Positions 13,476 to 56,058 of a DNA stretch of 64,000 nt are shown piece by piece. Each line of letters opens with the position of its first letter. Within the stretch, counting starts at the first letter, position 1. This DNA is from Blastocatellia bacterium. Lineage in GTDB: Bacteria > Acidobacteriota > Blastocatellia > UBA7656. Made by a program: the position numbers and the translations under genes. The notes beneath the pieces are model-generated. The model searched no databases. It had not been told where the DNA came from and saw nothing but the letters and a program-made list of their open reading frames with translations. The stretch is from NCBI GenBank assembly GCA_035607285.1, contig DATNBZ010000020.1, positions 4,505-68,504 on the forward strand, given 5' to 3'.

Positions 13476-13563
13476 TGCTCCCCCGCGTCCTCGGCGTCCC
13501 TGCGGTTCTCTTGATCGGTGTTGGGGATCAACCGCAGAGGACGCAGAGGACGCCGAGGGGCAA
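13476..13563. repeat. Palindromic intergenic element, family 3 (GCGTCCTCGGCGTCCCTGCGGTT ... AACCGCAGAGGACGCAGAGGACGC)
   Basis: Inverted arms around a 20-bp loop; related copies at 15567, 38379, 50112 and 55925. Confidence 0.65.
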
Positions 13564-13672
13564 CGCACGATGTCCGCTCCCTAACTCCAAAAAGATGGTG
13601 TATTGTCTGCCGATCGACATATAATGCCAAAGTAAGCTTGAGCCGCAACAGAGGCGTGACGGAGTTGCAATC

Positions 13673-14245
13673 GTGGAAACCCTGCCGAAACTAACAAGCG
13701 CAGACCTGGGACTCTTGCCGGAGGACGGCAAACTGTACGAATTGATCGATGGAGAACTCTACGTGTCTCGACAACCGTCCTGGGATCATCAGTATTCGTG
13801 TGTTCGCTTGGCCAGATTTCTAGATGAATGGAATGAGCAGGCTGACCTCGGAGTTGTTAACGCCGCGCCCGGTGTGATCTTTGCCGAAGATGATGATGTC
13901 GCTCCCGACCTGGTTTGGATAAGTCACGGCAAGCTAAGCACTGCGCTTGGTGAAGACCGAAAACTCCACTCCGCTCCTGAGTTGGTCATTGAAGTGCTAT
14001 CGCCCGGCTTCGCCAACCAGCAGCGTGATCGGCAGGCAAAACTGAAACTCTACAGCCGGCGCGGAGTGGTGGAATACTGGATCGTGAACGGACTAGAACA
14101 TGAAGTGGAGGTCTATCGCCACGACGGGATCAGCTTACGCTTTTGCGTGACACTTGGTGGTGAAGATCTCCTGGAGTCGCCCTTGTTGCCAGGATTCTCC
14201 TGCCGCGTGAGCAAGCTCTTCTTCGAGGGTTCACCGGGGGCCTAA
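13673..14245 (+). CDS. Uma2-family (DUF820) putative endonuclease
   Basis: 'ELVIEVLSPGFANQQRDRQAKLKLYSRRGVVEYWIVN' PD-(D/E)xK-like Uma2 signature; GTG start. Confidence 0.8.
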   Translation: METLPKLTSADLGLLPEDGKLYELIDGELYVSRQPSWDHQYSCVRLARFLDEWNEQADLGVVNAAPGVIFAEDDDVAPDLVWISHGKLSTALGEDRKLHSAPELVIEVLSPGFANQQRDRQAKLKLYSRRGVVEYWIVNGLEHEVEVYRHDGISLRFCVTLGGEDLLESPLLPGFSCRVSKLFFEGSPGA

Positions 14246-14418
14246 GCAGCACAATACTCATGCTGCTTCTGGGAAACTGATTTCCCGCAAGTGGACACAG
14301 CCACAAAAGGGGCCCGCCCGGGCTCGACCTAACACGAATCATTTAAGCACTTATCGGTACGAACTTTCTGGCACGCGGCTTGGCTAACAAGCAGCCTTGT
14401 ACTAGTGAGGTATTAGTC

Positions 14419-15565
14419 ATGTCTGCTGTAGTTCCTGCTGCTCCGCGAACCCTGATCGCCGACGATCAACCCGACGTGCTTGAAGCGCTCCGCCTCCTGC
14501 TGAAAGGCGAAGGCTACGAGACCCACGCGGTTACCACCCCCTCGGATGTGATCAAGGCCTTGAAGGCTAATGACTTTGATCTGTTGTTGATGGATCTGAA
14601 CTACGCGCGTGACACGACGTCGGGTCAGGAAGGGCTCGACCTGTTGTCACGAGTCCAGGCCGTCGACAGCACGCTTCCCATAGTTGTCATGACTGCGTGG
14701 GGAAGCGTCGAGCTTGCAGTCGAAGCGATGCGCCGGGGTGTGCGGGATTTCGTGTTGAAGCCCTGGGAAAACAATCGGCTGCTCACGATCCTACGGACTC
14801 AAATCGAGATGGGTTACGCGATGCGCAAGACAGCGCGGCTCAAGACCGAACAGGAGCGCGAGCTTGTCGAAGCGCGAGCCATTCAGCGGCGGCTTTTGCC
14901 AACCGAGATTCCTCAGATCGACGGCGGCCGAATCGCCGGCGCGTGGAGACCGGCTCGCACGGTGAGCGGCGACTACTTTGATGTGTTGAAGTTCAGCGAG
15001 ACTCGAGCCGCCCTGTGCATCGCAGACGTTTCAGGCAAGGGAATGCCCGCGGCCCTGTTGATGTCCAACGTGCAGGCCGCCGTTCACTCGTTCGCTTCCG
15101 AGACCGTTTCGCCATCCGAGTTGTGCGCGAAGGTGAACCACGTTGTGTCGGCGAGCACGGGCGAACAAGTTCATCACGTTCTTCTACGGCGTCGTGGACA
15201 CCGGAGAGAAGACGCTGACGTACACCAACGCGGGTCATAACGCGGGAATTCTCCTTCGCAACGACGGCTCGCTCGAGAGGCTCGAGCCGGCTGATGCAGT
15301 GCTCGGTCCATTTCGTAGTTGGAATTACACTGAAGCGAAGATTGAACTGTGTTCCGGCGATCGGCTTTTGCTGTTCACCGATGGGGTTACCGAGTTAAGA
15401 AACGCGGCGGCGGATGAGTTTGGCGAAGACCGTCTGATTGAATTGCTGATTCAAAATCGAGAGCTGGAAGCCGAGCAATTGCGGGATCGAATCGTGCAGG
15501 CCGTGGTGGATTTCAGCGGCGGCGAGTTCCAGGACGACGCGACGTTGCTGGTGCTGCGCGCGTAA
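14419..15565 (+). pseudogene. Response-regulator receiver + PP2C/SpoIIE (RsbU-like) phosphatase gene interrupted by a frameshift near 15165-15175
   Basis: Receiver domain (DDQPDVLE...LLMDLNYA...) and the first half of the PP2C domain in frame 1 end at 15240; the conserved 'KFITFFYGVVDTGEKTLTYTNAGH' continuation is in the +1 frame (ORF 15143-15565). A one-base indel around 'ggcgaacaag' would join them. Confidence 0.65.
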
Positions 15566-15566
15566 T

Positions 15567-15635
15567 CGCGTCCCCTGCGGTTTTCCGGCATCAGTCCGAG
15601 ATCAAACCGCTGAGGACGCAGAGGACGCTGAGGGT
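15567..15635. repeat. Palindromic intergenic element, family 3 (short copy)
   Basis: 'gcgtcccctgcggtt'...'aaccgctgaggacgcagaggacgc'. Confidence 0.6.
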
Positions 15636-19175: not shown

Positions 19176-19187
19176 GAAGTATCTGAA

Positions 19188-22900: not shown

Positions 22901-23309
22901 CGACGGCGACATTTTCCCGGCGATGTTTCGCGAGGCGGGACTCGGTCCGCTTATTGGGAAACGCTCGTGGGGCGGTGTCATCGGCATCGGCAATCGGGGC
23001 ACGCTGATCGACGGCGGCACGATCTTTGTGCCGGAGTCGGCGTTCGCAAGCGCAAAGGGACAATGGATTATCGAAGGCCACGGCGTCGATCCCGACATCG
23101 AAGTCGAGAACGATCCCAGGTCGGTGATGGCCGGCAAGGATCCGCAGCTCGAGCGCGCGGTGGCCGAGATCATGAAGACGCTCAAGGATCATCCGGTGAA
23201 ACTGCCGGCTCGTCCCGCGGCGCCGATAAAGACGCCCGACTATCGCCCCGACGTAACGCAGAACGGCCGGCCGGCTCGGCCCGAAGCGAAGGCCAAGGGT
23301 AATAACTGA
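19938..23309 (+). CDS. Tricorn-protease-like S41 peptidase (beta-propeller + PDZ + S41 domains)
   Basis: TolB-like propeller repeats ('KFSPDGKWIAF', 'RWSPDGSRIAF'), C-terminal S41 core 'SDGDIFPAMFREAGLGPLIGKRSWGG'; start could alternatively be the TTG at 19953 after the GGAGGA RBS. Confidence 0.85.
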   Translation: MEELTLNIRKLFSAAVLAATLFISISASAQTKLLRFPDIHGDKVVFTYGGDLWTAPAAGGTATRLTAHPGVEVFAKFSPDGKWIAFTGQYDGDEQVYVIPATGGEPKQLTFYPARGPLTPRWGYDNQVYGWTNDGKSVVFKSLRDSWTLPEARLYTVSVNGGAAEPLPMPEAGSGAFSPDGAKMVYSPQSRDFRTEKRYGGGQANQLYIFDLKSFDAKKISEGARPSRDPMWIGNTIYFNSDRDGHFNLYSYDVASGKTTAATTHKPWDVRWPSADRDGRIVYELDGELRVLDTRSKKDTALSITVPDDGLARRPSRVSAANNIEDATLSPKGERVLFCARGDIFTAPVEKGGTRNLTHSSGAHDKWPRWSPDGSRIAFISDKSGEDEVWVVAQDGSSAPEQLTTGGKAFRYAAEWAPDGKRLAFGDKDGKIFVVTVADHTLTQVVDAQFGQIRDYAWSPRGNHLAFSMSNNTGFRAMYIWSAGDSQLRKVTDNLFNSHTPVWDPQGNYLYYLSDREFAPQISNLEFDYATNRSTGIFALALRKDVKSLFPPESDEVTVTRDDGDKPKEPEKKEAAPKPSADLAIDFDGLGSRVVRVPVEANNYFGLAVKNGYLLYATGSAFYYGRQGDRPASLKIYSIKDRKETNFVEDIRGYDLSMDGSKVLVAGPGQSFGVYDATPQGDKSRKAISTAGLAVDRVPAEEWNQIFNEAWRRYRDFFYVPNMHGYDWEALREQYKPLLKYVAHRSDLNYVIGEMISELTVQHAYVEGGDIPLPPRPRVALPGARFELDRTAGRYKIAKIFAGENEEDIYRSPLTEVGVNVSVGDYVLAINGEELTAADDPYRLLRNKTDSTVLLTVNKEPTMTGARTVSYKPITNESDLIYLDWVTANRKKVSDMTGGRVGYIHIPDMGAAGIREFIKWYYGQITKEGMVVDVRANGGGNVSQMLIERLRRKVLALNYSRTFDEASTYPGAVFSGPMAALLNENSASDGDIFPAMFREAGLGPLIGKRSWGGVIGIGNRGTLIDGGTIFVPESAFASAKGQWIIEGHGVDPDIEVENDPRSVMAGKDPQLERAVAEIMKTLKDHPVKLPARPAAPIKTPDYRPDVTQNGRPARPEAKAKGNN

Positions 23310-23315
23310 TCGAAG

Positions 23316-23510
23316 CAGTCGTTCAGAGTACCGAAGCGGGTGTTCAGAGTATCGAAGCGGGTGTTCAGAGTACCGGCTTTAGCCGGGTAGTGCCTCTCGC
23401 TGTCGACCGTCTCAGTTGCCGCTGTCGAACGTTTCAGTTGCATTAGGCACTACCCGACTAAAGTCGGTACTCTGAACGCCCGCGTTACTCTGAACGCCCG
23501 CGTTGCCGGC
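23316..23510. repeat. Composite palindromic element (CTGAAC family), second full copy
   Basis: 'gttcagagtaccgaagcgggtgttcagagt...ccggctttagccgggtagtgcct ... aggcactacccgactaaagtcggtactctgaacgcccgcgttactctgaacgcccgc'. Confidence 0.7.
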
Positions 23511-26816: not shown

Positions 26817-26825
26817 AGGGAAACC

Positions 26826-26918: not shown

Positions 26919-26946
26919 GCACTAGAGAACCAAAAGGAGAAGACAG

Positions 26947-30112: not shown

Positions 30113-30124
30113 CGCACGAGATCA

Positions 30125-33918: not shown

Positions 33919-33930
33919 TAAGTGTTTCTT

Positions 33931-34030: not shown

Positions 34031-34032
34031 AT

Positions 34033-42045: not shown

Positions 42046-42046
42046 A

Positions 42047-42975: not shown

Positions 42976-43040
42976 GTATCGGATTTTGCTCCCTCAATAC
43001 CCAATACTCAACGCAAAGGCGCAAAGGACCGCAAAGCACG
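42943..43040. repeat. Palindromic element, family 2
   Basis: 'gtgctttgcggtcctttgcgcctttgcgctgagtat' ... 'atactcaacgcaaaggcgcaaaggaccgcaaagcacgc'. Confidence 0.7.
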
Positions 43041-43273
43041 CGGAGGTTATTCAGCAACGCGGAATCCGAACACCACTACCCAAATTTTCGCCAGGCCGGA
43101 CTACGATCTCTTCCTGGTCACGCCTTCTTGACCTTCACTTGCCTTGCTCGTTCCGATAGCTGTAACTCCCGCAGTGGATGTTGCGTACCTATTTATTGTC
43201 GAAAGAATCATCAAGATGGATTGATAGATAGGTTCATTGCGCCCCAGGGTTAAGGAAGAACTGCCTGCCTCCG

Positions 43274-44575
43274 ATGAGCCCCATCGTGCGCTCCATAATG
43301 AAACAGGGTATTATTAACAAAGATGAGCTTATGACAATTAGTCTCTTAAACCTTCGCATGATCTCCAGTCATTATCTTCGAATCCTCTCGGGGGCCGGAC
43401 TGATCGCGGTCCTCATCCTCTCTTCCGCCGCCTGCAAGAGCGGTTATCCTGTTTCGGCCAGGAACGCCTCGGGCGAAGCGACAGAAGCCAGACCGGTGAA
43501 AGTGTCTGCCGCTTCTGAAATCTCAATGGAGCGAACTATCACCGTAACCGGGACACTTGCGGCTTTCGACCAGGCGACCGTCAGCGCGAAGGTGCCCGGC
43601 CGGCTCGCGTCCATTTCGGTTGATCTCGGCACCGTGCTGCGACAGGGCCAGGTCATTGCTCAAATCGAGAAGCAGGATTATCAACTCCGGCTTCAACAGG
43701 CGGAAGCGGCGCTTTCGCAAGCGCGAGCCCGAGTTGGATTGCCTCCTGAAGGTAAGGATGATCGCATAGTAACCGAAGAGACCGGCACCGTCAGATCGGC
43801 CCAGGCGCTGCTCGACGATGCCAAGGTCAAACTCGATCGGGCTGAAGGGCTCGTCAAGCGCGGCGTTCTTGCAAAGGCGCAGCTCGACAGCGCCGCTTCA
43901 GATTACAAGGTTGCGCTCAGCCGGTATCAGGATGCGATCGAGGAGATTCGAAACCGGCAGGCGCTGGTGGTACAACGCCGTTCGGAACTCGAAATCGCGC
44001 GCCAGCAGCTTACCGATTCGGCAATCTATGCGCCGTTCGACGGTGTCATTCAGGAGAAGCGGGCAAGCATCGGCGAGTATATTGCGGCCGGCGCTCCGGT
44101 GGTCACCATAGTCAGAATGGATCCGCTGCGTTTGCGCGCGGAAGTGCCCGAGCGTGAGTCGCGCAGCGTTCACGTCGGCCAGGAAGTTCGAGTGACGCTC
44201 GAAGGCGATTCAAGCGTTTACACCGGAAAGATCGCCCGCATAAGCCCGGCCATCACCGCGCAGAATCGCGTGTTGATCGTGGAAGCTGAAGTTCGGAATA
44301 ACGGTACCCTTCGTCCCGGATCATTCGCGCGCGCGGAAATTGTTTCAGCCGATAGAGCTCCGGCGCTGGCGGTTCCCACGGCTGCGCTTGTGAGCTTCGC
44401 GGGAATCGACAAAGTGATCCTCGCGCAAGGCGGCAAAGCGGTCGAGACTCCAATCACTCTCGGACGCCGAACCGCTGAATGGGCCGAGGTCCTGGCGGGA
44501 TTGAAAGTCGGCGACCCTGTGATAATCAGTCCCGGCAACCTTCAATCGGGTCAGCCGGTGGTGATAACGGAGTAG
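43274..44575 (+). CDS. Efflux RND transporter periplasmic adaptor subunit (membrane fusion protein)
   Basis: Lipobox 'LILSSAAC', coiled-coil then beta-barrel MFP architecture; true start probably M20 or M29 of the ORF-track ORF. Confidence 0.8.
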   Translation: MSPIVRSIMKQGIINKDELMTISLLNLRMISSHYLRILSGAGLIAVLILSSAACKSGYPVSARNASGEATEARPVKVSAASEISMERTITVTGTLAAFDQATVSAKVPGRLASISVDLGTVLRQGQVIAQIEKQDYQLRLQQAEAALSQARARVGLPPEGKDDRIVTEETGTVRSAQALLDDAKVKLDRAEGLVKRGVLAKAQLDSAASDYKVALSRYQDAIEEIRNRQALVVQRRSELEIARQQLTDSAIYAPFDGVIQEKRASIGEYIAAGAPVVTIVRMDPLRLRAEVPERESRSVHVGQEVRVTLEGDSSVYTGKIARISPAITAQNRVLIVEAEVRNNGTLRPGSFARAEIVSADRAPALAVPTAALVSFAGIDKVILAQGGKAVETPITLGRRTAEWAEVLAGLKVGDPVIISPGNLQSGQPVVITE

Positions 44576-44697
44576 TTCGGAGTTCAGGGTTCAGAGTTCC
44601 GGGTTCGAACTCTGAACTCGGAACCCTGAACCCTGAACCCTGAACTCTGAACCCTGAACTCTGAACTCTGAACCCTGAACTCGGAACCCCAGTTTTT
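44576..44697. repeat. CTGAAC-family palindromic/tandem element
   Basis: 'gagttcagggttcagagttccgggttcgaactctgaactcggaaccctgaaccctgaaccctgaactctgaaccctgaactctgaactctgaaccctgaactcggaacccc'. Confidence 0.6.
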
Positions 44698-47600
44698 ATG
44701 CAGAAGCTCGCAGAAATTTGTATCAAGCGCCCGGTGTTCGCGGCGATGATCATCCTCGCTCTCGTGGTGGTTGGCGCTGCCAGCTACTTCCGCCTCGGCG
44801 TCGATCGTTTTCCCTCTGTAGACCTTCCGACCGTCAGCGTGCGCACGAGTCTGCGTGGCGCGGCGCCTGAAGAGGTCGAGAGCGAGGTCTCACAAAAAAT
44901 CGAAGAGGTTGTAAACACAGTCGAAGGCATACAGGAATTGCGCTCGATTTCCTTTCAAGGCAGTTCGTTCGTCATCGTTTCGTTCAACCTCGATCGAAAC
45001 ATAGATATCGCCGCGCAGGACATTCGCGATCGCGTTTCGACAATAACCCGCGACTTGCCGAAGGACGTTGACCCTCCGGTGATCGCGAAGTTCAACAACG
45101 ACTCATCGCCGGTCATTACCATCGCGCTTTCAGCGGACCGCCCCCTTCGCGAACTGACCGAGCTTGCCGACAAGGTGGTGAAGGTCCAGCTCGAAAGATC
45201 GACCGGAGTCGGAGAGGTTTCCATCACCGGCGGTCTAAACCGCGCTATCAATGTCTGGGTGGATCCTGACAGGCTTGCAGCGTATCAGATACCGATAACC
45301 ACGATTCGCAACGCCATCGTCCGTCAGAACGCCGACGCGCCGGGCGGCAACGTTACGTCAGGCGCTCACGAGCAGGGCCTTCGCACGATGAGCCGCGTCG
45401 TGGATCCGAAGCTCTTCGGTGATCTTGTGGTCACAAACATCAACGGCGCGCCTGTCCGGGTGCGCGACGTTGGCTGGGCTGAAGACGGAACAAAGGAGCA
45501 GCGCACGCTTGCCCGCTTGAACGGAGTGCCAACGGTCACACTTGAAGTGCAACGCCAATCGGGGGCCAACACTATCGAAGTGATTGAGGGTGTGAAGAAG
45601 GCCCTCGCTCGTGTAGCCGGTCAGATTCCGTCCGACGTCAAGATGGAAGTGATCCGCGATCAATCTCGTTACATCTACGCCGCCCTTCACGAGATCAACC
45701 TTCACCTCATACTGGGGAGCATTCTCGCGTGTCTGGTCGTTCTGTTGTTCGTGCGAAGCTGGCGCTCGACGCTGATCGCGGGCATCGCAATTCCGGCCTC
45801 GGTTATCGCGTCGTTTGGAATGATGAGGGCGCTGAACTTCACGCTGAACAGCGTGACCATGCTCGCGCTGGTGCTGATGGTAGGAATAGTCATCGACGAT
45901 GCGATCGTAGTGCTTGAAAACATTTTCCGCTTCGTCGAGGAAAAGAAGATGCGGCCTTTCGAAGCCGCTCGCGCCGCGACCGCTGAGATCGGGATGGCGG
46001 TGATGGCTACGACCTTGAGCCTGGTCGTAATCTTCATTCCTGTGTCGTTCATGTCCAGTGTGTCGGGACGCTTCCTGTACCAGTTCGGCATCACCGCCGC
46101 GGTTGCGATCATGGTGAGCCTGCTTGTTTCGTTCACGCTGACCCCTATGATGAGCGCTCGTTTGCTTCGCGCTGAGGACGCCGGCGGTCACGATCAGGCG
46201 AAATCACGGTCGGGCTTCTACGGGTGGATAGATCGGGTCTATACCAGCCTGCTGCTGTTCGCGATGCGACATCGCGTGGCAGTCGCCGTTCTCGCGCTGC
46301 TGGTTATTTTTTCATCTGTTCCTCTCTACGGCATTGTGAAGCAGGACTACTTGCCAAGCGACGTGGACGAATCCGAATTCGACGTCAACATCACCGCCCG
46401 GGAAGGCACGAGCTTCGCGTCGATGGAGGAGGTGATGCGAGCCGTTGAAGCGGATCTTCGCACGACTCCGGGCGTTCAGGTTGTGCTGGCGACCGCAGGC
46501 GGGGGCTTCAACGGCAACGTCAGCCAGGGCAGCGCTTACATTCGCATAGCGCCAATCGAAGAGCGCAGCTTTTCGATCGAGCGCCTCTGGCATGGAGTCA
46601 GTCACGGACATCCGCTCGAGGCTTTTCAAACCAACTACTCTCAGCGCGACGTGATGCAGGAGATTCGCAGTCGCCTGAGAAAGTACAAAGACCTTCGCAC
46701 CTCTGTGCGAAACGCGCCGTCGTTCAACATCGGCGGCGGCGGATTCGACATAGACTTCAACCTGCGCGGGCCAGACCTTGAAGCCCTTGCGAGTTATGCC
46801 GATCAGCTTCGCCTGCGCGCGCCGGAGCTTGGAATCGTCGACGCCGACACGACCCTGAAGCTGGATAAGCCCGAGCTGCGCGTTGAAATCGATCGAACGC
46901 GCGCCGCCGATCTGGGCGTATCAACCGACGATATCGCCTCCGCGTTGCAGTTGATGGTTGGAGGCGATCAGCGAGTCTCGCGCTTCCACGACGCGGCGGT
47001 CAACGACGATTATGACGTTCAGCTACGGCTGACTAATGGCCAGCGAAATGACCCCGCGGCGATTTCGCGGCTTTACGTGTCGCGGCAGAACGGGGAACTT
47101 GCGCGACTGGATAATCTTGTGAGTGTGGTTCCCGGCAAGACCGCGTCGCGCATCGATCGGCTCGATCGCCAGCGGCTGGTATCGCTGCGCGCGGCAGTGG
47201 CGCCCGGTTACGCGCTTGCCGACCGGCTTGACGCTCTCCGCAAGGCGGTTGCCGATATGCACCTGCCCGCCGCGTACACCACCAGTGTTTCTGGCCGCGC
47301 GCGTGAGCTCGAGCGGACGTTCAACGAGTTTATCTGGGCGTTCCTGCTTTCGGTCATATTCATGTATATGATCCTCGCATCGCAGTTCGAGAGCGTGGTT
47401 CACCCGCTGACCATCCTGCTATCGCTTCCGCTTTCGATTCCGTTTGCGTTGTTCTCGCTGTGGGTAACCGGCAACACGCTGAATCTGTACTCGGCGCTCG
47501 GCATACTGGTGCTGTTCGGCGTGGTGAAGAAGAACGCCATTCTCCAGATTGATCACATGAACGGACTACGCAACCGGGGAATGGATCGCCCCACCGCGAT

Positions 47601-47988
47601 CCTCCAGGCGAATCGCGACCGGCTTCGCCCGATTCTGATGACGACGCTCGCATTGGTGGCAGGGATGATGCCACTGGCGTTGGGAACGGGACCGGGCGCG
47701 GATGAACGACGAGCCATCGCCGTAGTAGTTATCGGCGGGCAAACGCTTTGCCTGCTGTTGACCCTGGTGGTAACGCCGGTTGCGTATTCGGTGTTTGATG
47801 ATATGGCTGCCACTGAGGCGTGGCGCTCGCTGGCGAATCGGATCTACGCGATAACCCATCCGTTCAGGAAACGAGTAAAGTCAGCCGTATCCGGCGCGTC
47901 GGTGTCTGCCGAGATAGATAGCATCGGCGCGGAGATTGAAGCCGCCGCCAAAGCTGACGACAAAATGAAAGTCGGCGCCGGCGATTAG
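44698..47988 (+). CDS. Efflux RND transporter permease subunit (AcrB/HAE family)
   Basis: 1096 aa, 12-TMS RND architecture, 'MQKLAEICIKRPVFAAMIILALVVVG' N-term. Confidence 0.9.
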   Translation: MQKLAEICIKRPVFAAMIILALVVVGAASYFRLGVDRFPSVDLPTVSVRTSLRGAAPEEVESEVSQKIEEVVNTVEGIQELRSISFQGSSFVIVSFNLDRNIDIAAQDIRDRVSTITRDLPKDVDPPVIAKFNNDSSPVITIALSADRPLRELTELADKVVKVQLERSTGVGEVSITGGLNRAINVWVDPDRLAAYQIPITTIRNAIVRQNADAPGGNVTSGAHEQGLRTMSRVVDPKLFGDLVVTNINGAPVRVRDVGWAEDGTKEQRTLARLNGVPTVTLEVQRQSGANTIEVIEGVKKALARVAGQIPSDVKMEVIRDQSRYIYAALHEINLHLILGSILACLVVLLFVRSWRSTLIAGIAIPASVIASFGMMRALNFTLNSVTMLALVLMVGIVIDDAIVVLENIFRFVEEKKMRPFEAARAATAEIGMAVMATTLSLVVIFIPVSFMSSVSGRFLYQFGITAAVAIMVSLLVSFTLTPMMSARLLRAEDAGGHDQAKSRSGFYGWIDRVYTSLLLFAMRHRVAVAVLALLVIFSSVPLYGIVKQDYLPSDVDESEFDVNITAREGTSFASMEEVMRAVEADLRTTPGVQVVLATAGGGFNGNVSQGSAYIRIAPIEERSFSIERLWHGVSHGHPLEAFQTNYSQRDVMQEIRSRLRKYKDLRTSVRNAPSFNIGGGGFDIDFNLRGPDLEALASYADQLRLRAPELGIVDADTTLKLDKPELRVEIDRTRAADLGVSTDDIASALQLMVGGDQRVSRFHDAAVNDDYDVQLRLTNGQRNDPAAISRLYVSRQNGELARLDNLVSVVPGKTASRIDRLDRQRLVSLRAAVAPGYALADRLDALRKAVADMHLPAAYTTSVSGRARELERTFNEFIWAFLLSVIFMYMILASQFESVVHPLTILLSLPLSIPFALFSLWVTGNTLNLYSALGILVLFGVVKKNAILQIDHMNGLRNRGMDRPTAILQANRDRLRPILMTTLALVAGMMPLALGTGPGADERRAIAVVVIGGQTLCLLLTLVVTPVAYSVFDDMAATEAWRSLANRIYAITHPFRKRVKSAVSGASVSAEIDSIGAEIEAAAKADDKMKVGAGD

Positions 47989-48003
47989 GGATCTTTTCAA
48001 ACG

Positions 48004-48528
48004 TTGCAATGTGCAGAAAGAAGCGGTCCGATCACGAATAAAGAACTAGTCAACGCTATCTGTAAACAATCAAGACCTCTGATTAGATCAAAGAGGGACG
48101 TTGCCCTTCGGTCCCTGGAAAGGGTCATTCTTGTGAAGAATCTGGATAAGGTGATGGTGGGGGCGATGGGTTGCGCTCAATGGATTCGTGCAGATTTGGA
48201 ACTACTACTTCGCGCCGCATTTTGGCTAACTCTTTCAGAAGGCGCGTTACGCGCCCGAATCGTGCTGGATCAAAAGGATTTGATGCAGAAGTTTCAGAAG
48301 CGTCTGGGCTTGAGTGATGGTGAAATAGAATCTCTCTTGAAGCGATCAGACGACTTGCTGAAGAGTTTGCCTCCTGTAAAGAAACAAATTGAGAATAACG
48401 CTCAGATACTCGAGCACGACATCTGGCATCAGCCGAAACTCGCGAAACTGTATGGCCATTTCCACGGTTCGCTCTCAAAGTTGTCGCACCCAGATCCGTT
48501 TTATCTTCTTTCCGGAACTGCTCTCTAG
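48004..48528 (+). CDS. Hypothetical protein in a lower-GC segment
   Basis: ORF only; AT-richer codon usage than neighbours. Confidence 0.35.
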   Translation: MQCAERSGPITNKELVNAICKQSRPLIRSKRDVALRSLERVILVKNLDKVMVGAMGCAQWIRADLELLLRAAFWLTLSEGALRARIVLDQKDLMQKFQKRLGLSDGEIESLLKRSDDLLKSLPPVKKQIENNAQILEHDIWHQPKLAKLYGHFHGSLSKLSHPDPFYLLSGTAL

Positions 48529-48831
48529 TCAGATTCCAGAATCCATTATGCCGGATTTTTCGCTATGTGCTAACGAGCTTGATAAAGAGTGGCGAGAACT
48601 GGAGGAAGAAACAAAGGCGGCCTAACTCTGGCGTTCGCTTAGTCGAAATGCAAATCCCTCCAGTTCCGTTCGGCCATCTGCAAAGCTTTCTACTAACAAT
48701 CAAGAAGCTCAAGAAGCGAGCTGCGCTCAACTTCAAACGCGTGAGCCGAGACCCGCGACTAGATTGACCCAGTACACTCATCTGGTACACTGGAGCCTAT
48801 CAGGATTGAACAACTCCAAGGAGATATTACC

Positions 48832-49152
48832 TTGAGCAGCAGAGTCGCCCCTGCAGTACGAACGATCACGCTGACGAAGGCTCGGAACAATCTTGGCGAT
48901 TTAGTGACGCGTGTTCATCACAACAAAGAGTACTTGATCTTTGAGAAAGACGGCGTCCCGATTGCCGGCGTTATGGACATTGACGAGTTTGAAGACTACT
49001 TGGAACTTAACGACCCGAAGGTCCGTCGCGAGATTATGAAGAGCAACGAAGATATTCGTGCTGGCCGAACGCGCAACGCCAGAGACTTGCTGGCAGAACT
49101 GCGCGATAAGAACAAAAGCAAAGTTCGGAAGACGCGGTCCAAGAAGGTATGA
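48832..49152 (+). CDS. Phd/YefM-family type II antitoxin
   Basis: 'TITLTKARNNLGDLVTRVHHNKEYLIFEKDGVPIAGVMDIDEFEDYLE' Phd/YefM fold signature. Confidence 0.8.
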   Translation: MSSRVAPAVRTITLTKARNNLGDLVTRVHHNKEYLIFEKDGVPIAGVMDIDEFEDYLELNDPKVRREIMKSNEDIRAGRTRNARDLLAELRDKNKSKVRKTRSKKV

Positions 49153-49286
49153 CGACCCGTTTCACTGTTCGTTCTGGTTCAGCTTTCGACCGTGCCCTGC
49201 GCAAGCTAGTCAAGCGTCATCCCCGTCTAGTTGATTCATACGATGATGTCATCGACATCCTGGAACACTTATCGATGAAGCGATGA
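49149..49286 (+). pseudogene. Truncated RelE/ParE-type toxin gene (45 codons)
   Basis: ATGA overlap with the antitoxin stop; 'MTTRFTVRSGSAFDRALRKLVKRHPRLVDSYDDVIDILEHLSMKR*' matches only the first about half of a RelE/ParE toxin. Confidence 0.5.
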
Positions 49287-49413
49287 AATGAACGTCCGCG
49301 CCGGCGACTAAAAGTTTTTTCACCTCACACCCATCTTTGCCCTACCATTCGTTCGTACGGTATAAAGTATGAAGCGTGTTAAGCCCCAATCCAATTGAAG
49401 GTGTTGAAGCATC

Positions 49414-50058
49414 GTGCATCATAAGAAGTTTCTGTTCGCAGTCGTTGTCGGAACCGCAGCTCTGGCCGTCGCCATCTCGACAATCGTAATCGGAAGCTCG
49501 CGCAATGAAACGCCCGCCGCCGTTGCTGAAGGGCCGCTTGAAGACTCGAGCGGTGAGGTTGCGGCTACGCTGCCCGTGTTTCATCGAGTCGACGAAAATT
49601 ACGTGCGAGGCTCGCAGCCGATGCGAGGGGGCATCAGCACGCTGAAGAGACTCGGCGTCAGGACGATGGTCGACCTGCGTTCGATCTATGACTACACCGA
49701 CGAGGTTAAGACCGTAGCGGAAATCGCCGGCCTCAAGTATGAATGGATTCCAATGAGCGTCTGGAACCCTCCGACCGATGAGGAAGCGAAGAAGTTCGTT
49801 TCCATTGTGAGCGATGCCGCCAACGGTCCGTTCTTTGTCTTTTGCGCGGACGGGCTAAACCGAACCGGCGAGATGACTGCGATCTATCGAGTCGCACGCG
49901 ACAACTGGAGTGTCGAGAAGGCGCTGGACGAAGCCGACCAGCTCGGCTTCAGCCCTTACTATTGGGGGCTGAGAGATTATGTGTGGGACTACGCGCGAAA
50001 GTTCCGGCCATCGGCGGTCCCACCCACCGGCCGCCGCGTGAGTCCGACCGAACAGTGA
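49414..50058 (+). CDS. Tyrosine/dual-specificity protein phosphatase family protein, exported
   Basis: CX5R active site 'FCADGLNRTG'; signal/TM segment at N-terminus; GTG start. Confidence 0.75.
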   Translation: MHHKKFLFAVVVGTAALAVAISTIVIGSSRNETPAAVAEGPLEDSSGEVAATLPVFHRVDENYVRGSQPMRGGISTLKRLGVRTMVDLRSIYDYTDEVKTVAEIAGLKYEWIPMSVWNPPTDEEAKKFVSIVSDAANGPFFVFCADGLNRTGEMTAIYRVARDNWSVEKALDEADQLGFSPYYWGLRDYVWDYARKFRPSAVPPTGRRVSPTEQ

Positions 50059-50111
50059 TCGGTTGCTGGTCTCTTCATCAAAAGTGCCGCTTAAGTGTGC
50101 TGACCCCTTCG

Positions 50112-50195
50112 CAGTCCTCAGCGTCCTCGGCGTCCTCTGCGGTTTATCTTGGATTGGTGCGGAGAATCAACCGCAGAGGACGCGGAGGACACGCA
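50112..50195. repeat. Palindromic intergenic element, family 3
   Basis: 'cagtcctcagcgtcctcggcgtcctctgcggtt' ... 'aaccgcagaggacgcggaggacacgcag'. Confidence 0.65.
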
Positions 50196-50322
50196 GTAAT
50201 TCTGAGCCAGCAACAGGGTGTGACGCCTGACCGATCCGCGACAACGCTTGATCATTCAGCATCCCCTCCATCATACTTCGCCGCGAATGCACTGATTCTC
50301 AACGCCGAAAGCTTAAGCACCG

Positions 50323-51702
50323 ATGGCGAAATCCAAAATCTCTAAACTCGTTTTTGTCTGCCAGCAGTGCGGCTCGCAGCAGCAACGTTGGATGGGCAAG
50401 TGCCCGGACTGCGGCGAATGGAATTCACTCGTCGAAGAGAAACCCGCAACTCTGCAACCGGGAGCTTCGCCCCGCGGTGGAATGTTCCGCATGAGAGAGA
50501 CCGCAACGCTCGCTTACCAGGACATCGAAAGCCAGGACGACGCCCGCCAACCGTCGGGCATCGAAGAGTTCGACCGCGTGCTTGGCGGAGGCATAGTCCC
50601 GGGTTCGCTTGTGTTGATCGGCGGCGACCCCGGCATCGGAAAATCAACGCTGCTGCTCGAGGTCTCGGACAAGCTTTCTACTAATTGCGGTAAAGTGCTT
50701 TACGTTTCAGGCGAAGAGAGCGAACGCCAAATCAAATTGCGCGGCGAGCGATTGGGCATCAATCCCGCCGCTTTGTACCTTTTGCCCGAAACCTGCCTCG
50801 AGCGGATTTTTCAGGAGATCGACCGTCTCGATCCGCAAGCCGTCGTCGTCGATTCAGTGCAAACCGTGTTTTCGATGAAGCTTGAATCCGCGCCCGGATC
50901 GGTCTCTCAGGTTCGCGAAGTAGCCGGCCAGTTCCTGATGCTTGCCAAGAATCGAGGCATTCCTGTTTTTCTTATCGGACATGTCACCAAGGACGGTTCG
51001 ATCGCCGGACCGAAGACGCTCGAGCACATCGTCGATACCGTCCTCTACTTCGAAGGTGAGCGGCATCACAATCATCGAATCATTCGCGCGGTGAAAAACC
51101 GTTTCGGCGCGGCGAATGAAGTGGGCGTATTCGAGATGACTGGCCGCGGGCTCGTTCCTGTGCTGAATCCGTCCGGGTTGTTTTTGAATGAGCGGCCCGT
51201 TGGAGTGTCGGGCTCAGTGGTAACCGCGTGCATTGAAGGCACGCGGCCGATGCTGGTTGAGCTGCAGGCGCTGGTCAGTTCCTCGAAATACGGCACGGCT
51301 CGAAGAATGACTCAGGGCGTCGACGGCAACCGCGTGTCTCTGTTGATGGCGATGCTCGAGAAGCGCGTCGGGATGCAAGTGCTCGCTGACGATGTGTTCG
51401 TGAATGTAGCCGGTGGCATGACGATCGACGAACCTGCTGCCGATCTTGGGATTGTCGCCGCGATTGCATCGAGCTTTCGCAACGTTCCGGTGGACGAACG
51501 AGCGGCGGTGTTTGGAGAAGTCGGATTAGCCGGAGAAGTGCGAGCGACAAGCCAGGCTTCGGTGCGGGTGCGTGAAGCCTATGCGATGGGCTTCAAACGT
51601 TGTGTTATTCCTCACGGGAATCTCACGGGTCTTGATTACGACGACGGGATTGAAGTGATCGGAGTTCGCAACGTTACTGATGCGCTCGATGCGTTGTTTT
51701 GA
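50323..51702 (+). CDS. radA: DNA repair protein RadA/Sms
   Basis: N-terminal Zn-ribbon 'CQQCGSQQQRWMGKCPDCGEW', RecA-like Walker A 'GGDPGIGKSTLLL', 'KNRFG' motif, Lon-like C-terminal domain. Confidence 0.95.
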   Translation: MAKSKISKLVFVCQQCGSQQQRWMGKCPDCGEWNSLVEEKPATLQPGASPRGGMFRMRETATLAYQDIESQDDARQPSGIEEFDRVLGGGIVPGSLVLIGGDPGIGKSTLLLEVSDKLSTNCGKVLYVSGEESERQIKLRGERLGINPAALYLLPETCLERIFQEIDRLDPQAVVVDSVQTVFSMKLESAPGSVSQVREVAGQFLMLAKNRGIPVFLIGHVTKDGSIAGPKTLEHIVDTVLYFEGERHHNHRIIRAVKNRFGAANEVGVFEMTGRGLVPVLNPSGLFLNERPVGVSGSVVTACIEGTRPMLVELQALVSSSKYGTARRMTQGVDGNRVSLLMAMLEKRVGMQVLADDVFVNVAGGMTIDEPAADLGIVAAIASSFRNVPVDERAAVFGEVGLAGEVRATSQASVRVREAYAMGFKRCVIPHGNLTGLDYDDGIEVIGVRNVTDALDALF

Positions 51703-51726
51703 CCCTAGCCACTAGAGACAATCACT

Positions 51727-52362
51727 ATGACAATAGACAACTCGCTGATGGAAGCCTTGGCTGCAGTAGAGCTCCGGCGCAAAGAGGGTAACGAGACCTT
51801 CCACGAGAACGATGTTCCTGTCGGTAAGGATCTCTTGAGTTACTGGCGATGGTCAGCCTCCGATCTCCTAAGCAATACCGAACGCGGCCGGCTCGCCGAA
51901 TACATCGTTGCGATGGCGCTCGACGTTGCAGACGGCGTTCGCTCGGGATGGGAGGCCTACGACATCGAAACATCATCGGGGATCCGTGTCGAAGTAAAGG
52001 CCAGCGCTTACGTACAGACGTGGGGTCAGAAGGCTTTGTCGAAGATCATCTTCGGCATACGTCCAACAAGAGCGTGGGATCCAACCACTAATGTCTTTGC
52101 AAAAGACTCCCAACGCCAGGCCAATGTCTATGTTTTTGCTGTCCTCGCCGAGCGCAACCAGACGAACGTCGATCCGCTCAACCTCGCCCAATGGCAGTTC
52201 TACGTTTTGCCCACTAGCGTCCTTAACGATCGGGCGCCCCTCCAGAAAACTATCAACCTTTCTTCGCTTCTAAGGATGGGAGCGCTGATTGCGGGTTATC
52301 AAGAACTCCGCGAAGCCGTTGAGCGTGCTTCGGGTGATCTCGCTACTGCGGAGTGCAAGTAG
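51727..52362 (+). CDS. Hypothetical protein with PD-(D/E)xK-like nuclease motif
   Basis: 'YDIETSSGIRVEVKAS' (D...EVK) resembles a restriction-endonuclease-fold core. Confidence 0.5.
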   Translation: MTIDNSLMEALAAVELRRKEGNETFHENDVPVGKDLLSYWRWSASDLLSNTERGRLAEYIVAMALDVADGVRSGWEAYDIETSSGIRVEVKASAYVQTWGQKALSKIIFGIRPTRAWDPTTNVFAKDSQRQANVYVFAVLAERNQTNVDPLNLAQWQFYVLPTSVLNDRAPLQKTINLSSLLRMGALIAGYQELREAVERASGDLATAECK

Positions 52363-52417
52363 TCGCAAGGTTTGCTACCATCAGTCCGCAAACTACAGCC
52401 AAACGAGGAGGCTCGCA

Positions 52418-52642
52418 GTGACTAATCCTAAGCAGCGCATTACGATCAACCCTGAACAATGCGGTGGCCGTCCGTGTATTCGCGGTATGCGGATTCGAGT
52501 CATTGATGTCCTTGATCTTTTTGCCGCTGGACTCAGTGCTCAAGAAATTCTTGGGGAGATGCCTGACCTTGAGATGGAAGACCTGACGGCGGCCTTGCGG
52601 TACGCGGCCCAGAGACTTGACCATCCGGTTATTGCCGCATGA
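52418..52642 (+). CDS. DUF433-domain protein
   Basis: 'ITINPEQCGGRPCIRGMRIRVIDVLDLFAAG'; GTG start after the GAGGAGG RBS (the ORF-track 5' extension from 52289 was rejected). Confidence 0.7.
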   Translation: MTNPKQRITINPEQCGGRPCIRGMRIRVIDVLDLFAAGLSAQEILGEMPDLEMEDLTAALRYAAQRLDHPVIAA

Positions 52643-52977
52643 TTATCTGGATTGACGCTCAGCTCTCACCCGCCCTCGCTAACTGGATCGAAACAACACT
52701 CGGTATCCAAGCGCGTGCATTACGCGATGTTGGTCTGCGCAACGCGACGGATCGAGAGATCTTTCGCGCGGCCCGTGCAGCTAATGCGATAGTGATGACT
52801 AAGGATAGCGATTTCGTAACCCTGCACAACCAACTCGGCGCGCCGCCGCAGGTCATCTGGCTCACGTGCGGGAACACATCGAACCAGTATTTGCGCACCT
52901 TACTGACAACAGCGTTGCCCAAAGCTCTTGTGTTGTTGGAGGGTGGAGAGGATCTCGTTGAGATCAGCGCGCCCTAA
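52639..52977 (+). CDS. DUF5615-family PIN-like protein (partner of DUF433)
   Basis: 'MIIWIDAQLSPALANWI...' ; ATGA overlap with the DUF433 stop. Confidence 0.7.
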   Translation: MIIWIDAQLSPALANWIETTLGIQARALRDVGLRNATDREIFRAARAANAIVMTKDSDFVTLHNQLGAPPQVIWLTCGNTSNQYLRTLLTTALPKALVLLEGGEDLVEISAP

Positions 52978-53024
52978 CGAGTGTCCGAAAAGGTCCTGCG
53001 TTTAGTTTGTCCGCGCCGCCATCT

Positions 53025-55121
53025 CTACAGTCCAAACGCTCTTACCAGCAGTGCTGCCATCTGGCCGCGCGTGACATAGTCTCCTGGGCAAAAATTCCCT
53101 CCGCCACATCCTCCGGTAATCCCCAGGGCTCCAAGCCTGTCGATGAAGGCGTAGTACGGATTGGACCGCGGCACGTCTAAGAACATCCGAGACGCGGGAA
53201 CGGGAGGGCTGTACTCTCCCAGCGCCCGGATGATAAGTGCAGCTACCTGTTCGCGGGTGACAGGATCACCGGGGCAGTAGAGCGGTTGACCCTGGTTATT
53301 GGCGCCGCAGCCGCTGGTGATGCCAAATGCAGCCAGCTTGTCGATGAAGCTATAGAAAGGATCAGGCTGCCCGTTTACGGTTGGCGGCACGTCATCAAAT
53401 CGTTGCATAGCTGTAGGCAGGGGGCTGAACTCTCCAAGCGCTTTAATCACAAGCGCTGCCATCTGCTGGCGAGTGACCGGTTCATCGGGGCAGTAACGCC
53501 CATTAGCGCAGCCTACAGTCACGCCTCGAGCGGCCAGTTTACCTATCTCCGTGTAAAAAAAATGAGTCTTGGGAACATCAAGAAAGTCTACACTCTGGAC
53601 AACGGTGAACGTCTGACCTGCGACTGTGATAACGCCGCTACGATTAACTGCGCCGGGATTTGCGCGTACCAAAAAGGTGACCGTCCCGTTACCGGCGCCA
53701 CTTCCCGACAGAATGGTAATCCAAGCTACGTCGGCTGAGGCGGTCCAGCTACAGTTCCTCGCTTGTGTCACATTGAAGCTGCCCATTCCTTCGTTGGCAC
53801 TGAAGGATTGACTCAATGGAGCCATCGAGAGGACGCACTCCGACGGCGGCGTGTAGTTGTAGTATATGGATCCCCTGGCTGCGGGTGTCCCGCCTTCGCA
53901 ATGTTGGATGAAATCCGCCGCGAAGCTCACCACTTGCACTTCGGAGGATGAATAATCAAAGGCGGCATCAAGGACGGTAAACTCACCAATCAGCGTGTTG
54001 CATCCTCGGCCATTTCCCGAAAGGTCCAGGCCCGGGTGTCCGGCAGCTTCGAAGGGATAGCGTTGAGCGTTGGTGTAATAGCCGGGCACCAAAGCTACAT
54101 TCAGATTTCTGGTTGTGATGTGGAGACTCCACCAATTAGCAAAGGCAGCGTCGTTGTAGGCCAGGCGAAAGTAATTACCCGCACCGTTGGTGCTTCCCCA
54201 AGTGCGGAAAAATCCATCTCTTGGCGTGAACACATACTCATGAGACCCCACGATAAAGTCGCCCGGTTCCCCTTGCAAGGATAGCCTGGTGATTGAAGGA
54301 ATCGGTGACACAACCTTCAACGTGGCTGCGCTTGAAACTCCATGGTAACTGGCAAGTATGACGACCGACGAAGGCGATTTTATCCTGGTGGTGCTTATCG
54401 GGAAGTCTGCAGACTTCGATCCCTGTGGCACCGGGACGCTGGAAGGCACAGTCGCCAGCGCGACATTGCCGCTGGCGAGGTGTACGAGCGCGCCGCCCGG
54501 CGGCGCGGGATCGGTAAGAACCACGATGCCCTTGACGGTCTCGCCCCCATTTACGGTCGGCGGATTAGCTCTCAGAGAACTGGTGGGAGTGTAATTGTAG
54601 TAGATAACACCCGCCAGTGAGATTGGACCACCTTCACAATGTTGCTCGAACTGCGCTGCGAAGCTGATGAGTTGTGGAGTTCCTGATGAATAATCAAAAG
54701 TTGCTTGCAGGACGGTGAAGCTGCCTGTCACCGTGTTGCACCCTCGCCCATCTCCAGTAACCTCGAGACCTGGATGACCAGCCGTTGCAAACGGCGCGCG
54801 CATCGCCTTATCGTAAAAGCCAGGCTTTAACTCCAGATGTAGCTGGGTTGTGGTAAATGTCAAATTCCACCGCTGACCGGGACCAGTGAAGCCAATCGTA
54901 ACGTAATCGACCAAACCATCGTGATCGTGATCGAGTCCTCCCGCTGAGAAACTGCCATTCGCCGGCGTGAATGAATATGTTTGCCCACCGCCTATGTAAT
55001 CCCCCGGATTGCTCACCATGTAAAGTTGCGTAGCGCCGGCGGCCGGTGTGCTCTGCGCGAAAGCTGATGGCGCGAAAGCAGCAAGAAAGAGAAGTATCAG
55101 TATCGTGTGAATGCGGTTCAT
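53025..55121 (-). CDS. Secreted surface protein: two duplicated about 240-aa beta modules, BACON/Ig-like domain, three C-terminal SLH domains
   Basis: Signal peptide 'MNRIHTILILLFLAAFAPSAFA'; internal duplication ('...HCEGG...IYYNYTP' twice); 'NCSWTASADVAWITILSGSGAGNGTVTFLVRANPG' BACON-like; three 'F.DVP...Y..I..L...GIT.GC.....CP...VTR.Q.AAL' SLH repeats; real start at M62 of the ORF-track ORF. Confidence 0.75.
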   Translation of the reverse strand: MNRIHTILILLFLAAFAPSAFAQSTPAAGATQLYMVSNPGDYIGGGQTYSFTPANGSFSAGGLDHDHDGLVDYVTIGFTGPGQRWNLTFTTTQLHLELKPGFYDKAMRAPFATAGHPGLEVTGDGRGCNTVTGSFTVLQATFDYSSGTPQLISFAAQFEQHCEGGPISLAGVIYYNYTPTSSLRANPPTVNGGETVKGIVVLTDPAPPGGALVHLASGNVALATVPSSVPVPQGSKSADFPISTTRIKSPSSVVILASYHGVSSAATLKVVSPIPSITRLSLQGEPGDFIVGSHEYVFTPRDGFFRTWGSTNGAGNYFRLAYNDAAFANWWSLHITTRNLNVALVPGYYTNAQRYPFEAAGHPGLDLSGNGRGCNTLIGEFTVLDAAFDYSSSEVQVVSFAADFIQHCEGGTPAARGSIYYNYTPPSECVLSMAPLSQSFSANEGMGSFNVTQARNCSWTASADVAWITILSGSGAGNGTVTFLVRANPGAVNRSGVITVAGQTFTVVQSVDFLDVPKTHFFYTEIGKLAARGVTVGCANGRYCPDEPVTRQQMAALVIKALGEFSPLPTAMQRFDDVPPTVNGQPDPFYSFIDKLAAFGITSGCGANNQGQPLYCPGDPVTREQVAALIIRALGEYSPPVPASRMFLDVPRSNPYYAFIDRLGALGITGGCGGGNFCPGDYVTRGQMAALLVRAFGL

Positions 55122-55211
55122 GTGCGGACCTCTTTGAGGGGATCGACCGGAGGGCGCTGTCATTCTGGCACGTTTGCCTGGCACCGGCAAGAATAAACAA
55201 GGCGGACGGGA

Positions 55212-55316
55212 GTAACGACCTGTATGGGCGGCCCTCCGTGGCCGCCCCTCTTTACGTACGGCGCTCGTTGGACCGAAGAGGGGCGGCCAGGGAGGGCCGC
55301 CCATACAGGTCGTTAC
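55212..55316. repeat. Palindromic intergenic element, family 1
   Basis: 'gtaacgacctgtatgggcggccctccgtggccgcccctctt' ... 'aagaggggcggccagggagggccgcccatacaggtcgttac' (41-bp arms). Confidence 0.75.
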
Positions 55317-55427
55317 TACGAGACCGCCCAGAGTCGTGTCCGATTAATAGATGAGAGCCGTTGAAGAAAACCACCCAATCAATGTGAACCTGCTCGCTGC
55401 GACCTCTCAACGAACTTCATCGAAATG

Positions 55428-55877
55428 TCAGCGCCAATAATCAGGCCGCTCCTCAGTGTTCGGGTCGTGTCTTTCCATCCATCGCTCCGGTTTTTTCAAC
55501 TCATCGAATCCAAATCGGCGATACATCTCGTGAGCGTCTTTCGTCGCGAGCACCCATCTTCGAAATCCCTGCAGTTCCGGATGGGCGATGATCACTTCCA
55601 TCAGCCACTTTCCCAATCCCTGCCCCTGAAACGCCTCGAGGATGAATACATCCGCGATCCACGCGAAGGTCGCGTAGTCGGTTATCACTCGCGCAAAGCC
55701 AACTTGGTGATCGCCCGCGTAGACGCCGAACGGAAGCGAGTGTTCGATTGATCTGCGGATTGTCTCGGGAGAGCGCCCCGCCGCCCAATAGGACGTGTCC
55801 AGAAAGCGGTGAATGACTTCGATATCGAGCCGCGACCTGTCTGTGCTTATTGTGAACTCGCCTCGCTGATAATCCAT
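55428..55877 (-). CDS. GNAT-family N-acetyltransferase
   Basis: 'QGQGLGKWLMEVIIAHPE' acetyl-CoA binding motif; start at M56 of the ORF-track ORF (its N-terminal extension is repeat-derived). Confidence 0.75.
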   Translation of the reverse strand: MDYQRGEFTISTDRSRLDIEVIHRFLDTSYWAAGRSPETIRRSIEHSLPFGVYAGDHQVGFARVITDYATFAWIADVFILEAFQGQGLGKWLMEVIIAHPELQGFRRWVLATKDAHEMYRRFGFDELKKPERWMERHDPNTEERPDYWR

Positions 55878-55924
55878 TCCAAATTCCCCGCGATTCTGGG
55901 TAGTGGGGTGATAGTGTCTTGCTC

Positions 55925-56058
55925 GCTCACATTCGCGTTTCTCCTCTGCGTCCTCTGCGTCCTCTGCGGTTGATTCCGAGCAACTGAGCAGGAAAAACCG
56001 CGGAGGACGCCGGGGACGCAGAGGACTGCTTGCTGGCAACACGCTAATATCTCACTAC
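55925..56058. repeat. Palindromic element, family 3, long copy (near-identical to 38379-38515)
   Basis: Direct comparison of both copies. Confidence 0.7.

Follow-up and report, generated by a model that had tools for sequence, protein, structure and literature searches.

The window considered here is a stretch of 64,000 nucleotides on contig DATNBZ010000020.1 of an uncultured Blastocatellia bacterium (phylum Acidobacteriota), and it contains five copies of a palindromic element that will be referred to as Family 3. Copy A lies between genes for a luciferase-like monooxygenase and a Uma2 endonuclease, B between those for a response-regulator/SpoIIE phosphatase and a TPR protein, C between those for a MocA-type oxidoreductase and a DUF1080 hydrolase, D between those for a DSP phosphatase and RadA, and E between those for a leucine (Leu) dehydrogenase and a GNAT acetyltransferase. 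Each hairpin arm is a run of tandem 9-mers (GCGTCCTCN), the two arms ending GCGGTT-loop-AACCGC. With up to 2 mismatches allowed, the 15-mer GCGTCCTCTGCGGTT has nine matches in the window (13530, 15568/15605, 38412/38451, 50130/50169 and 55957/55996), always as arms of these five palindromes and nowhere else; 0.23 matches are expected in the shuffled window, and none of 100 shuffles reached nine. No other clusters of the 8-mer core occur in the window. An earlier reading of the DNA alone (the original prediction) had placed the copies at 13476, 15567, 38379, 50112 and 55925, and all five were found there.

Copies C (38379-38513) and E (55925-56058) are identical at 123 of 135 positions (91%), the non-palindromic flanks included, and a repeat finder independently pairs the two over 123 nt at 91%. 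The proposal that these long copies share about 135 bp with their flanks is therefore borne out. As a measure of the element it fell short: the similarity runs on past the 135 bp first stated, the real length in E is 161 bp, and both the terminal inverted repeats (TIRs) and the opposite orientations of the copies had been overlooked. Judged from loops and flanks, C and E are oriented opposite to A, B and D. A recurrent pseudo-peptide had also been predicted to appear as a spurious N-terminus of open reading frames (ORFs). This peptide (SSPLRPRRPPRF...STAEDAEDAEEK) can indeed be read from the minus strand of both C and E, and ORF 55428-56042 owes its spurious first 55 codons to it, the true start of the GNAT gene being 55877 according to the gene call on ENA contig L019 (99.8% identical to window positions 45016-60047) and to alignment with relatives.

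The full extent of the element emerged from metagenome contigs, which were scanned for the flank joined to an arm (CGCAGAGGA N2-8 CGCGAATGTGAGC). The scan returned 40 loci on 40 different contigs, all from metagenome Ga0134124, and so the search for copies beyond the window that had been proposed yielded long copies sharing their flanks as well as their arms. When the 40 loci are placed in register the common sequence extends far past the hairpin. The 32 copies having both ends gave a consensus of 161 bp, GGTAGTGGGGTATTAGCGTGTTGCCAGCAAGCAGTCCTCTGCGTCCCCGGCGTCCTCCGCGGTTTTTCCTGCTCAGTGGCTCGGAATCAACCGCAGAGGACGCCGAGGACGCAGAGGAGAAACGCGAATGTGAGCGAGCAACACACTATCACCCCACTACC; identity to it is 90% or more in 28 of the 32 and 95.7% or more in 21. 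The element consists of 24-bp TIRs, two short non-palindromic subterminal segments and a central hairpin with two to three tandem 9-mers per arm. The TIRs (GGTAGTGGGGTATTAGCGTGTTGC ... GCAACACACTATCACCCCACTACC, a pair that may also be written GGTAGTGGGGT...ACCCCACTACC) are complementary at 21 of 24 positions in the consensus and are found at both ends of the 32 copies; they begin GGTAGTG, with an end type of GGTAGTGGGG. The flanks shared by C and E are thus the element's own subterminal sequence and not conserved gene ends, the neighbouring genes starting or stopping outside. The consensus is predicted to fold as a single rod (-105.9 kcal/mol, z = -12.7). Contigs L023, L042, L052 and L055 have exact 9-bp indels in one arm, which represent gain or loss of one whole unit. 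The element is non-coding, any ORF running across it being a spurious extension of a neighbouring gene. Long copies total 42, to which 22 further Family-3 hairpins in the flanks of the Ga0134124 loci are added, with TIRs that range from clear to undetectable; the copy number would appear to lie in the hundreds per genome.

A target-site duplication (TSD) of 8 bp, the search for which had been suggested, stands beside most full copies. Its sequence is variable; it is perfect in 14 of the 32 full copies and matches at seven of eight positions in 8 more, while direct repeats of 6, 7, 9 or 10 bp flank the element at background score only. No target-site consensus is evident in the 14 perfect duplications, merely a slight AT-richness. 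In the window, copy E (55899-56059, minus strand) is a complete element in which both 24-bp TIRs are matched and 156 of 161 positions (97%) agree with the consensus. Its central 9-mer hairpin spans about 55938-56029, and the region 55920-56065 folds at -69 to -74 kcal/mol. On the minus strand its duplication reads CAAAACCG at 56060-56067, adjoining the stop codon of the Leu-dehydrogenase gene, and CAGAATCG at 55891-55898, 13 nt upstream of the GNAT start, the two being identical at six of eight positions. Copy C (38367-38514, minus strand) is a 148-bp form with 84% overall identity to the consensus and one intact TIR, ending at 38514; it is near-identical to the consensus as far as ...GTGAGCGAAC, beyond which the second TIR has been replaced or deleted. 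Its duplication, taken from the sequence together with the alignment of filled and empty sites, reads CAACTTTT at 38359-38366 and CAACTTTC at 38515-38522 (plus strand), seven of eight positions being identical. Alignment to contig L060 and to Pfam gives true starts of 38275 for the MocA-type oxidoreductase and 38648 for the divergent DUF1080 gene, which places C in a divergent promoter region rather than at a gene end.

Relatives of the window show the same sites without the element. Leu-dehydrogenase homologues (86-91% identity) were traced to contigs L060, L061 and L062, the closest named relatives of the enzyme being Blastocatellia. In these three contigs the gap between the Leu-dehydrogenase stop codon and the GNAT gene is 0-29 nt, compared with 195 nt in the window, and alignment demonstrates that the extra DNA is exactly element E plus one duplication: L061 and L062 have a single, element-free CAAAA(C/A)TCG at the junction, where the window has CAAAACCG - element - CAGAATCG. 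The 556-kb contig L060, which is syntenic with much of the window, has the divergent MocA/DUF1080 intergenic region without C. Single-copy empty sites speak against the 8-bp flanking repeats being a preferred target motif that was there before insertion. Likewise D is absent at the orthologous site in L060 and L062, A does not follow the orthologous gene in L064 and L065, and B is absent in L065. L064 has a different repeat in B's place, a 7-mer array (about 3125-3170) directly after the SpoIIE-phosphatase stop codon, and lineages differ in which repeat family has hit a given intergenic spot. Because neither the Family-3 core nor the TIR occurs in 73 kb of syntenic relatives and the sites there are empty, the expansion of Family 3 is lineage-specific.

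The element is of a size (within 50-800 bp) and non-coding character, and has TIRs (at least 10-15 bp), a TSD (2-10 bp), dispersed copies and a filled/empty polymorphism, that define a miniature inverted-repeat transposable element (MITE). Family 3 is very probably a MITE of an uncultured Blastocatellia lineage, presumably moved in trans by a DDE transposase. Such an enzyme is suggested because only staggered-cut transposition gives duplications of fixed length and variable sequence. Encoded elsewhere, the transposase would bind both ends of the element, excise or copy it and insert it at a staggered 8-bp cut, the repair of which would leave the 8-bp duplication. The original prediction had preferred recent transposition to convergent evolution of terminators, and it is in this respect supported by the 40 further flank-sharing copies, the duplications and the empty orthologous sites; gene conversion, which it had offered as an alternative to transposition, is not needed to account for the similarity.

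Several observations weigh against this reading or limit its reach. The 431 kb of sequence examined, the plasmids and the viral contigs yielded no autonomous partner whose ends match. Within the 431 kb, TIR pairs 0.3-5 kb apart, the spacing of an insertion sequence (IS), gave no autonomous IS, nor did long repeats shared among loci; the ORFs flanked by inverted 13-mers are only ordinary genes lying between two MITEs (menaquinone biosynthesis, a beta-propeller protein and a histidine kinase). Copy B, and about half of the extra Ga0134124 hairpins without clear TIRs, have no detectable TIR, and not every Family-3 member need have arrived as the 161-bp MITE. GTAG, which the termini include (G-GTAG-TG), is the tag of repetitive extragenic palindromes (REPs) that are mobilized by REP-associated tyrosine transposases (RAYTs). 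The gene contexts of 35 copies, used below, derive from crude ORF calls. The recurrence of the hairpin core in other phyla (see below) is a real oddity.

The remaining copies in the window are less complete. Copy A (13456-13581, plus strand) is probably a decayed and shortened MITE with 63% identity to the consensus and arms of two and three units. A direct repeat, TAACTCC, stands on either side of it (13448-13454 and 13582-13588), and it follows the stop codon of the luciferase-like monooxygenase gene at a distance of 35 nt; its flanks bear a weak resemblance to the consensus ends (p ~0.035 against random flanks), and its hairpin folds at -58 kcal/mol. Copy D (50080-50229, plus strand, boundaries approximate), between the DSP-phosphatase gene and radA, is probably a decayed full-length MITE; its identity to the consensus is 66%, its 15-mer cores are perfect, its flank similarity gives p ~0.03 in the same test, and it forms inverted repeats with C (76%) and E (83%). 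To judge by their sequences, A and D are probably old, decayed copies. In D's place, upstream of radA, contig L060 carries an unrelated palindrome (AGAATAACAGGTAGGGAAGGTGGGCTTGCCCCCGC ...) at about 12880-13200. Copy B (15567-15634, plus strand) is a bare hairpin with unequal arms, one unit on the left and three on the right, and a fold of -36.5 kcal/mol; it begins 2 nt past the response-regulator/SpoIIE phosphatase stop codon, and neither a TIR nor the consensus ends are detectable at it (flank test against random flanks, p = 0.86). The idea that old copies have kept the hairpin better than the TIRs was abandoned, since copies were found via the hairpin and the comparison is biased. The SpoIIE phosphatase gene itself (14380-15565) is split into the overlapping frames 14380-15240 and 15143-15565, the sign of a frameshift, a sequencing error or a pseudogene; L064 and L065 have it intact (382-384 amino acids).

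The position of the copies relative to genes bears on whether they act as RNA. Insertion is exclusively intergenic and occurs in either orientation; by the crude calls, the 35 copies with callable flanking ORFs comprise 10 co-oriented, 7 anti-oriented, 13 divergent and 5 convergent contexts, so that insertion is intergenic but indifferent to the direction of transcription. An orientation bias as a sign of RNA function was considered, as it is seen in all four tandem-context copies of the window, but it was rejected on the 10 versus 7 among the 35 copies. That the copies are instead terminators or mRNA-stabilizing hairpins, evolved or selected independently and alike through convergence or gene conversion, would accord with their very stable stems, with A, B, D and E each lying downstream of a gene and oriented like it, and with the bare hairpins of other phyla, most of which are 13-60 nt past stop codons. 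However, the hairpin is followed by no U-tract, and a scan around E found neither a terminator-like nor a promoter-like site. Divergent genes flank C and 13 of the 35 copies, conservation extends to the TIRs and the non-palindromic flanks, and TSDs and empty sites exist. Given the random orientation, the many divergent-gene sites and the missing U-tract, the copies are not terminators, and this explanation as a whole is highly improbable. A multicopy family of small-RNA genes, each copy expressed as a structured regulatory RNA, merits equally little credence. The strong fold (z = -12.7) and the fact that both mismatches of the consensus stem become G-U pairs on one strand are in its favour, but the inverted repeats by themselves account for the structure, copies are inserted both ways round and E has no promoter-like site. 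Rfam gave no hits over the whole window at gathering thresholds, and at E-value thresholds only sub-threshold, generic eukaryotic microRNA hairpin models.

The remaining alternative, also improbable though somewhat less remote than the RNA-based ones, is that Family 3 is of the REP/REPIN type, in which a REP-associated tyrosine (HUH) transposase moves two inverted REP units in the form of single-stranded hairpins, as with the REPINs of Pseudomonas. Family 3 is similarly abundant as intergenic palindromes, its G-GTAG-TG termini put GTAG near each outer end, the whole element folds as a long rod and a separate, classical GTAG family is present in the window; the bare form (copy B and the hairpins of other phyla), without a duplication and just after genes, is also REP-like. 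The MITE form, in contrast, makes duplications: variable 8-bp TSDs accompany 22 of the 32 full copies and both window copies with empty-site controls (C and E), and IS200/IS605-type HUH transposition is not known to produce any. GTAG occupies positions 2-5 of each terminus, whereas a REP has its tag at one end of a 20-40 bp palindrome, and the 24-nt terminus does not in itself form a short palindrome beside the tag. RAYT-like enzymes flanked by long TIRs are encoded in Acidobacteria (PMC3733652), but the GGGGWSAS motif of the RAYT-associated TIRs is unmatched in Family 3. In the account of GTAG/CGTC-tagged palindromes and of REP/REPIN and RAYT systems given by Di Nocera et al. (2013; PMC3733652), the tagged palindromes have stems of 5-13 bp, compared with the ~30 bp that Family 3 builds from 9-nt repeats, and CGTC REPs have stems of 8-9 bp and loops of 4-5 nt.

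Read as a MITE, Family 3 is readily compared with those of other bacteria, among them NEMIS/Correia of Neisseria, RUP of S. pneumoniae, ERIC and Nezha of cyanobacteria (listed in PMC3733652; defined in PMC11602168). It shares with them a small size, the lack of coding sequence, TIRs of the 15-30-bp class, a short TSD, intergenic copies in the tens to hundreds, a transcript that would fold into a robust hairpin and insertion polymorphism between relatives. It differs in being a new sequence family, from uncultured Blastocatellia, and in an interior that is not an obvious deleted IS and has a tandem-9-mer hairpin that exists alone in other phyla. No description of the element was found in the literature under its motif, its TIR or MITEs of Acidobacteria and Blastocatellia. 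According to Harmer and Hall (PMC6807381), ends of the form GGnnnTG are common to the IS6/IS26 and IS1 families; the GGTAGTG termini of Family 3 fit this form, with G at positions 1, 2 and 7 (and 10), and an 8-bp TSD suits both families. Unlike IS6/IS26 ends, however, they match the 14-bp end consensus GGTTCTGTTGCAAA (PMC6807381) at 7 of 14 positions only. Assignment to the IS1 or IS6/IS26 family may therefore serve as a lead, not a result. Short tandemly repeated heptamers, known as STRR, are found in heterocystous cyanobacteria. They resemble Family 3 as intergenic arrays of short tandem units, and the window also contains 7-mer arrays (GAACCCT), but the units of Family 3 are 9 nt long and form two inverted arrays that make a hairpin inside a transposon.

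The hairpin core is far more widely distributed than the MITE. One genome per species was scanned for both arm cores (GCGTCCTCNGCGGTT N10-40 AACCGCNGAGGACGC, 28 specified bases), which gave at least 18 loci. The metagenome-assembled genomes (MAGs) among the matches listed are labelled Spirochaetaceae, Treponemataceae, Bdellovibrionota, Clostridia, Gemmatimonadota, Opitutaceae, Blastocatellia and Pyrinomonadaceae, and the loci among these matches have a GC content of 43-71%, several being on megabase contigs. The core, of the form ...GTCCTCTG(CGTCCTCNG)nCGGTT-loop-AACCG(CNGAGGACG)n..., is present near letter-for-letter in at least six phyla (Spirochaetota, Bdellovibrionota, Clostridia, Gemmatimonadota, Verrucomicrobiota and Acidobacteriota). 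On its two megaplasmids the cultured Gemmatirosa kalamazoonensis carries 23 core matches, one of them with the compensatory pair GTGGTT/AACCAC. In the copies of other phyla the likeness ends at the arms, the loops and flanks being unrelated; most follow shortly after stop codons, and no TSD is evident at them. MITE ends seemed apparent on hairpins of Gemmatimonadaceae and Opitutaceae, but when scored against random flanks 21 of 22 were not significant. A common neighbouring gene, of the kind of a RAYT-like 'REPtron', was likewise discarded, the neighbours being unrelated housekeeping genes. Neither the core, in 2.9 million viral contigs, nor the TIR, in viral contigs, was found. In a Gemmatimonadetes MAG (contig L006) a gene for a PD-(D/E)XK nuclease (PF13366; 2297-2749) ends 36 nt before a hairpin, and an alcohol dehydrogenase gene is bracketed by two hairpins (2785-2825 and 4067-4108).

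The converse arrangement, ends with another hairpin, is seen in Ga0134124. The 146-bp MITE at L023:3055-3200 shares the Family-3 termini (GGCAGTGGGG ... CACCCACTACC) and has a TSD matching at seven of eight positions (CGCGATTT/CACGATTT), and its hairpin is of a different 9-mer type (CCACNAAGN / NCTTNGTGG). As the ends can carry another 9-mer hairpin and the same hairpin exists without the ends, the hairpin is, in the MITE reading, cargo or a stuffer and not a determinant of mobility; the simplest reading is of a separable module carried as cargo by the MITE. A bolder proposal, possible but in our view doubtful, is that the core is a separate, REP-like module much older than the MITE, with 9-nt-periodic arms and a range of at least six phyla, which was picked up here by a TIR chassis. 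Were this so, it would point to an undescribed and broadly distributed mobilizer, a conserved host factor that reads the sequence, or spread of a ~60-nt element between phyla. The other 9-mer families of the window (CTTTGCG and CTTNGTG) differ from the Family-3 core mainly by transitions, and the 9-mer families of the window may belong to one superfamily.

The window is rich in further repeats. Another 9-mer hairpin family (CTTTGCGNN ... GCGTT-loop-AACGC) occurs at 11995-12100, 27632-27735, 33930-34031 and 42937-43046. Three of these copies are bare hairpins near gene ends; the fourth (42937-43046), whose left arm is read through by ORF 42133-42975, has after it, at about 43046-43075, the sequence AGCAACGCGGAATCCGAACACCACTACC, similar to the right end of the Family-3 MITE. 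A GTAG-type, REP-like family (CATGTAGGGGCGGCCCTCCGTGGCCGCCCC...) forms inverted doublets at 26824-26923, 32757-32921, 42045-42139, 55211-55317 and 60050-60217, and 21-bp tandem repeats of GATAACGACATGTAGGGTCCC occupy 60050-60129. The 7-mer arrays (GAACCCT/GTTCAGG) lie at 1485-1750 and 44570-44703. Long palindromes at 1406-1510, 23309-23483, 30120-30238 and 57168-57298 comprise GTTCAGAGCACCGACTTTAGTCGG hairpins, another hairpin made of GATCAGCG units (arms of 47 nt, 91% complementary) and a palindrome with 52-nt arms (98% complementary). The Ga0134124 contigs also contain an unrelated interspersed repeat of ~250-300 bp, with 82-89% identity between copies (L020 12152-12404, L026 5696-5988, L027 10502-10795, L028 7531-7825, L033 6693-6952, L035 13414-13712 and L055 11182-11494). 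Between the window and L019, 21 of the 26 differences fall within 45060-45324 (265 bp) of an RND transporter gene, mostly at multiples of three, and this cluster looks like a small recombination patch. Three ADOP-family duplicated permeases in the window score above the NCBIfam cut-offs.

As a new family, Family 3 is well supported; in kind it is ordinary and well known, a young and abundant MITE in a poorly known class of soil bacteria. Its copies create spurious ORFs and false N-terminal extensions, such as the 55 false codons on the GNAT gene, and they break metagenome assemblies, several copies being at contig ends. If transcribed, a rod of approximately -106 kcal/mol would probably impede read-through or alter mRNA decay, for example at the junction of the Leu-dehydrogenase and GNAT genes. 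With E inside this otherwise tight gene pair and C in a divergent promoter region, the lineage offers a natural experiment on the effect of such a hairpin on expression. The 9-mer hairpin shared across phyla, if not trivial, would define a new class of bacterial interspersed repeat.

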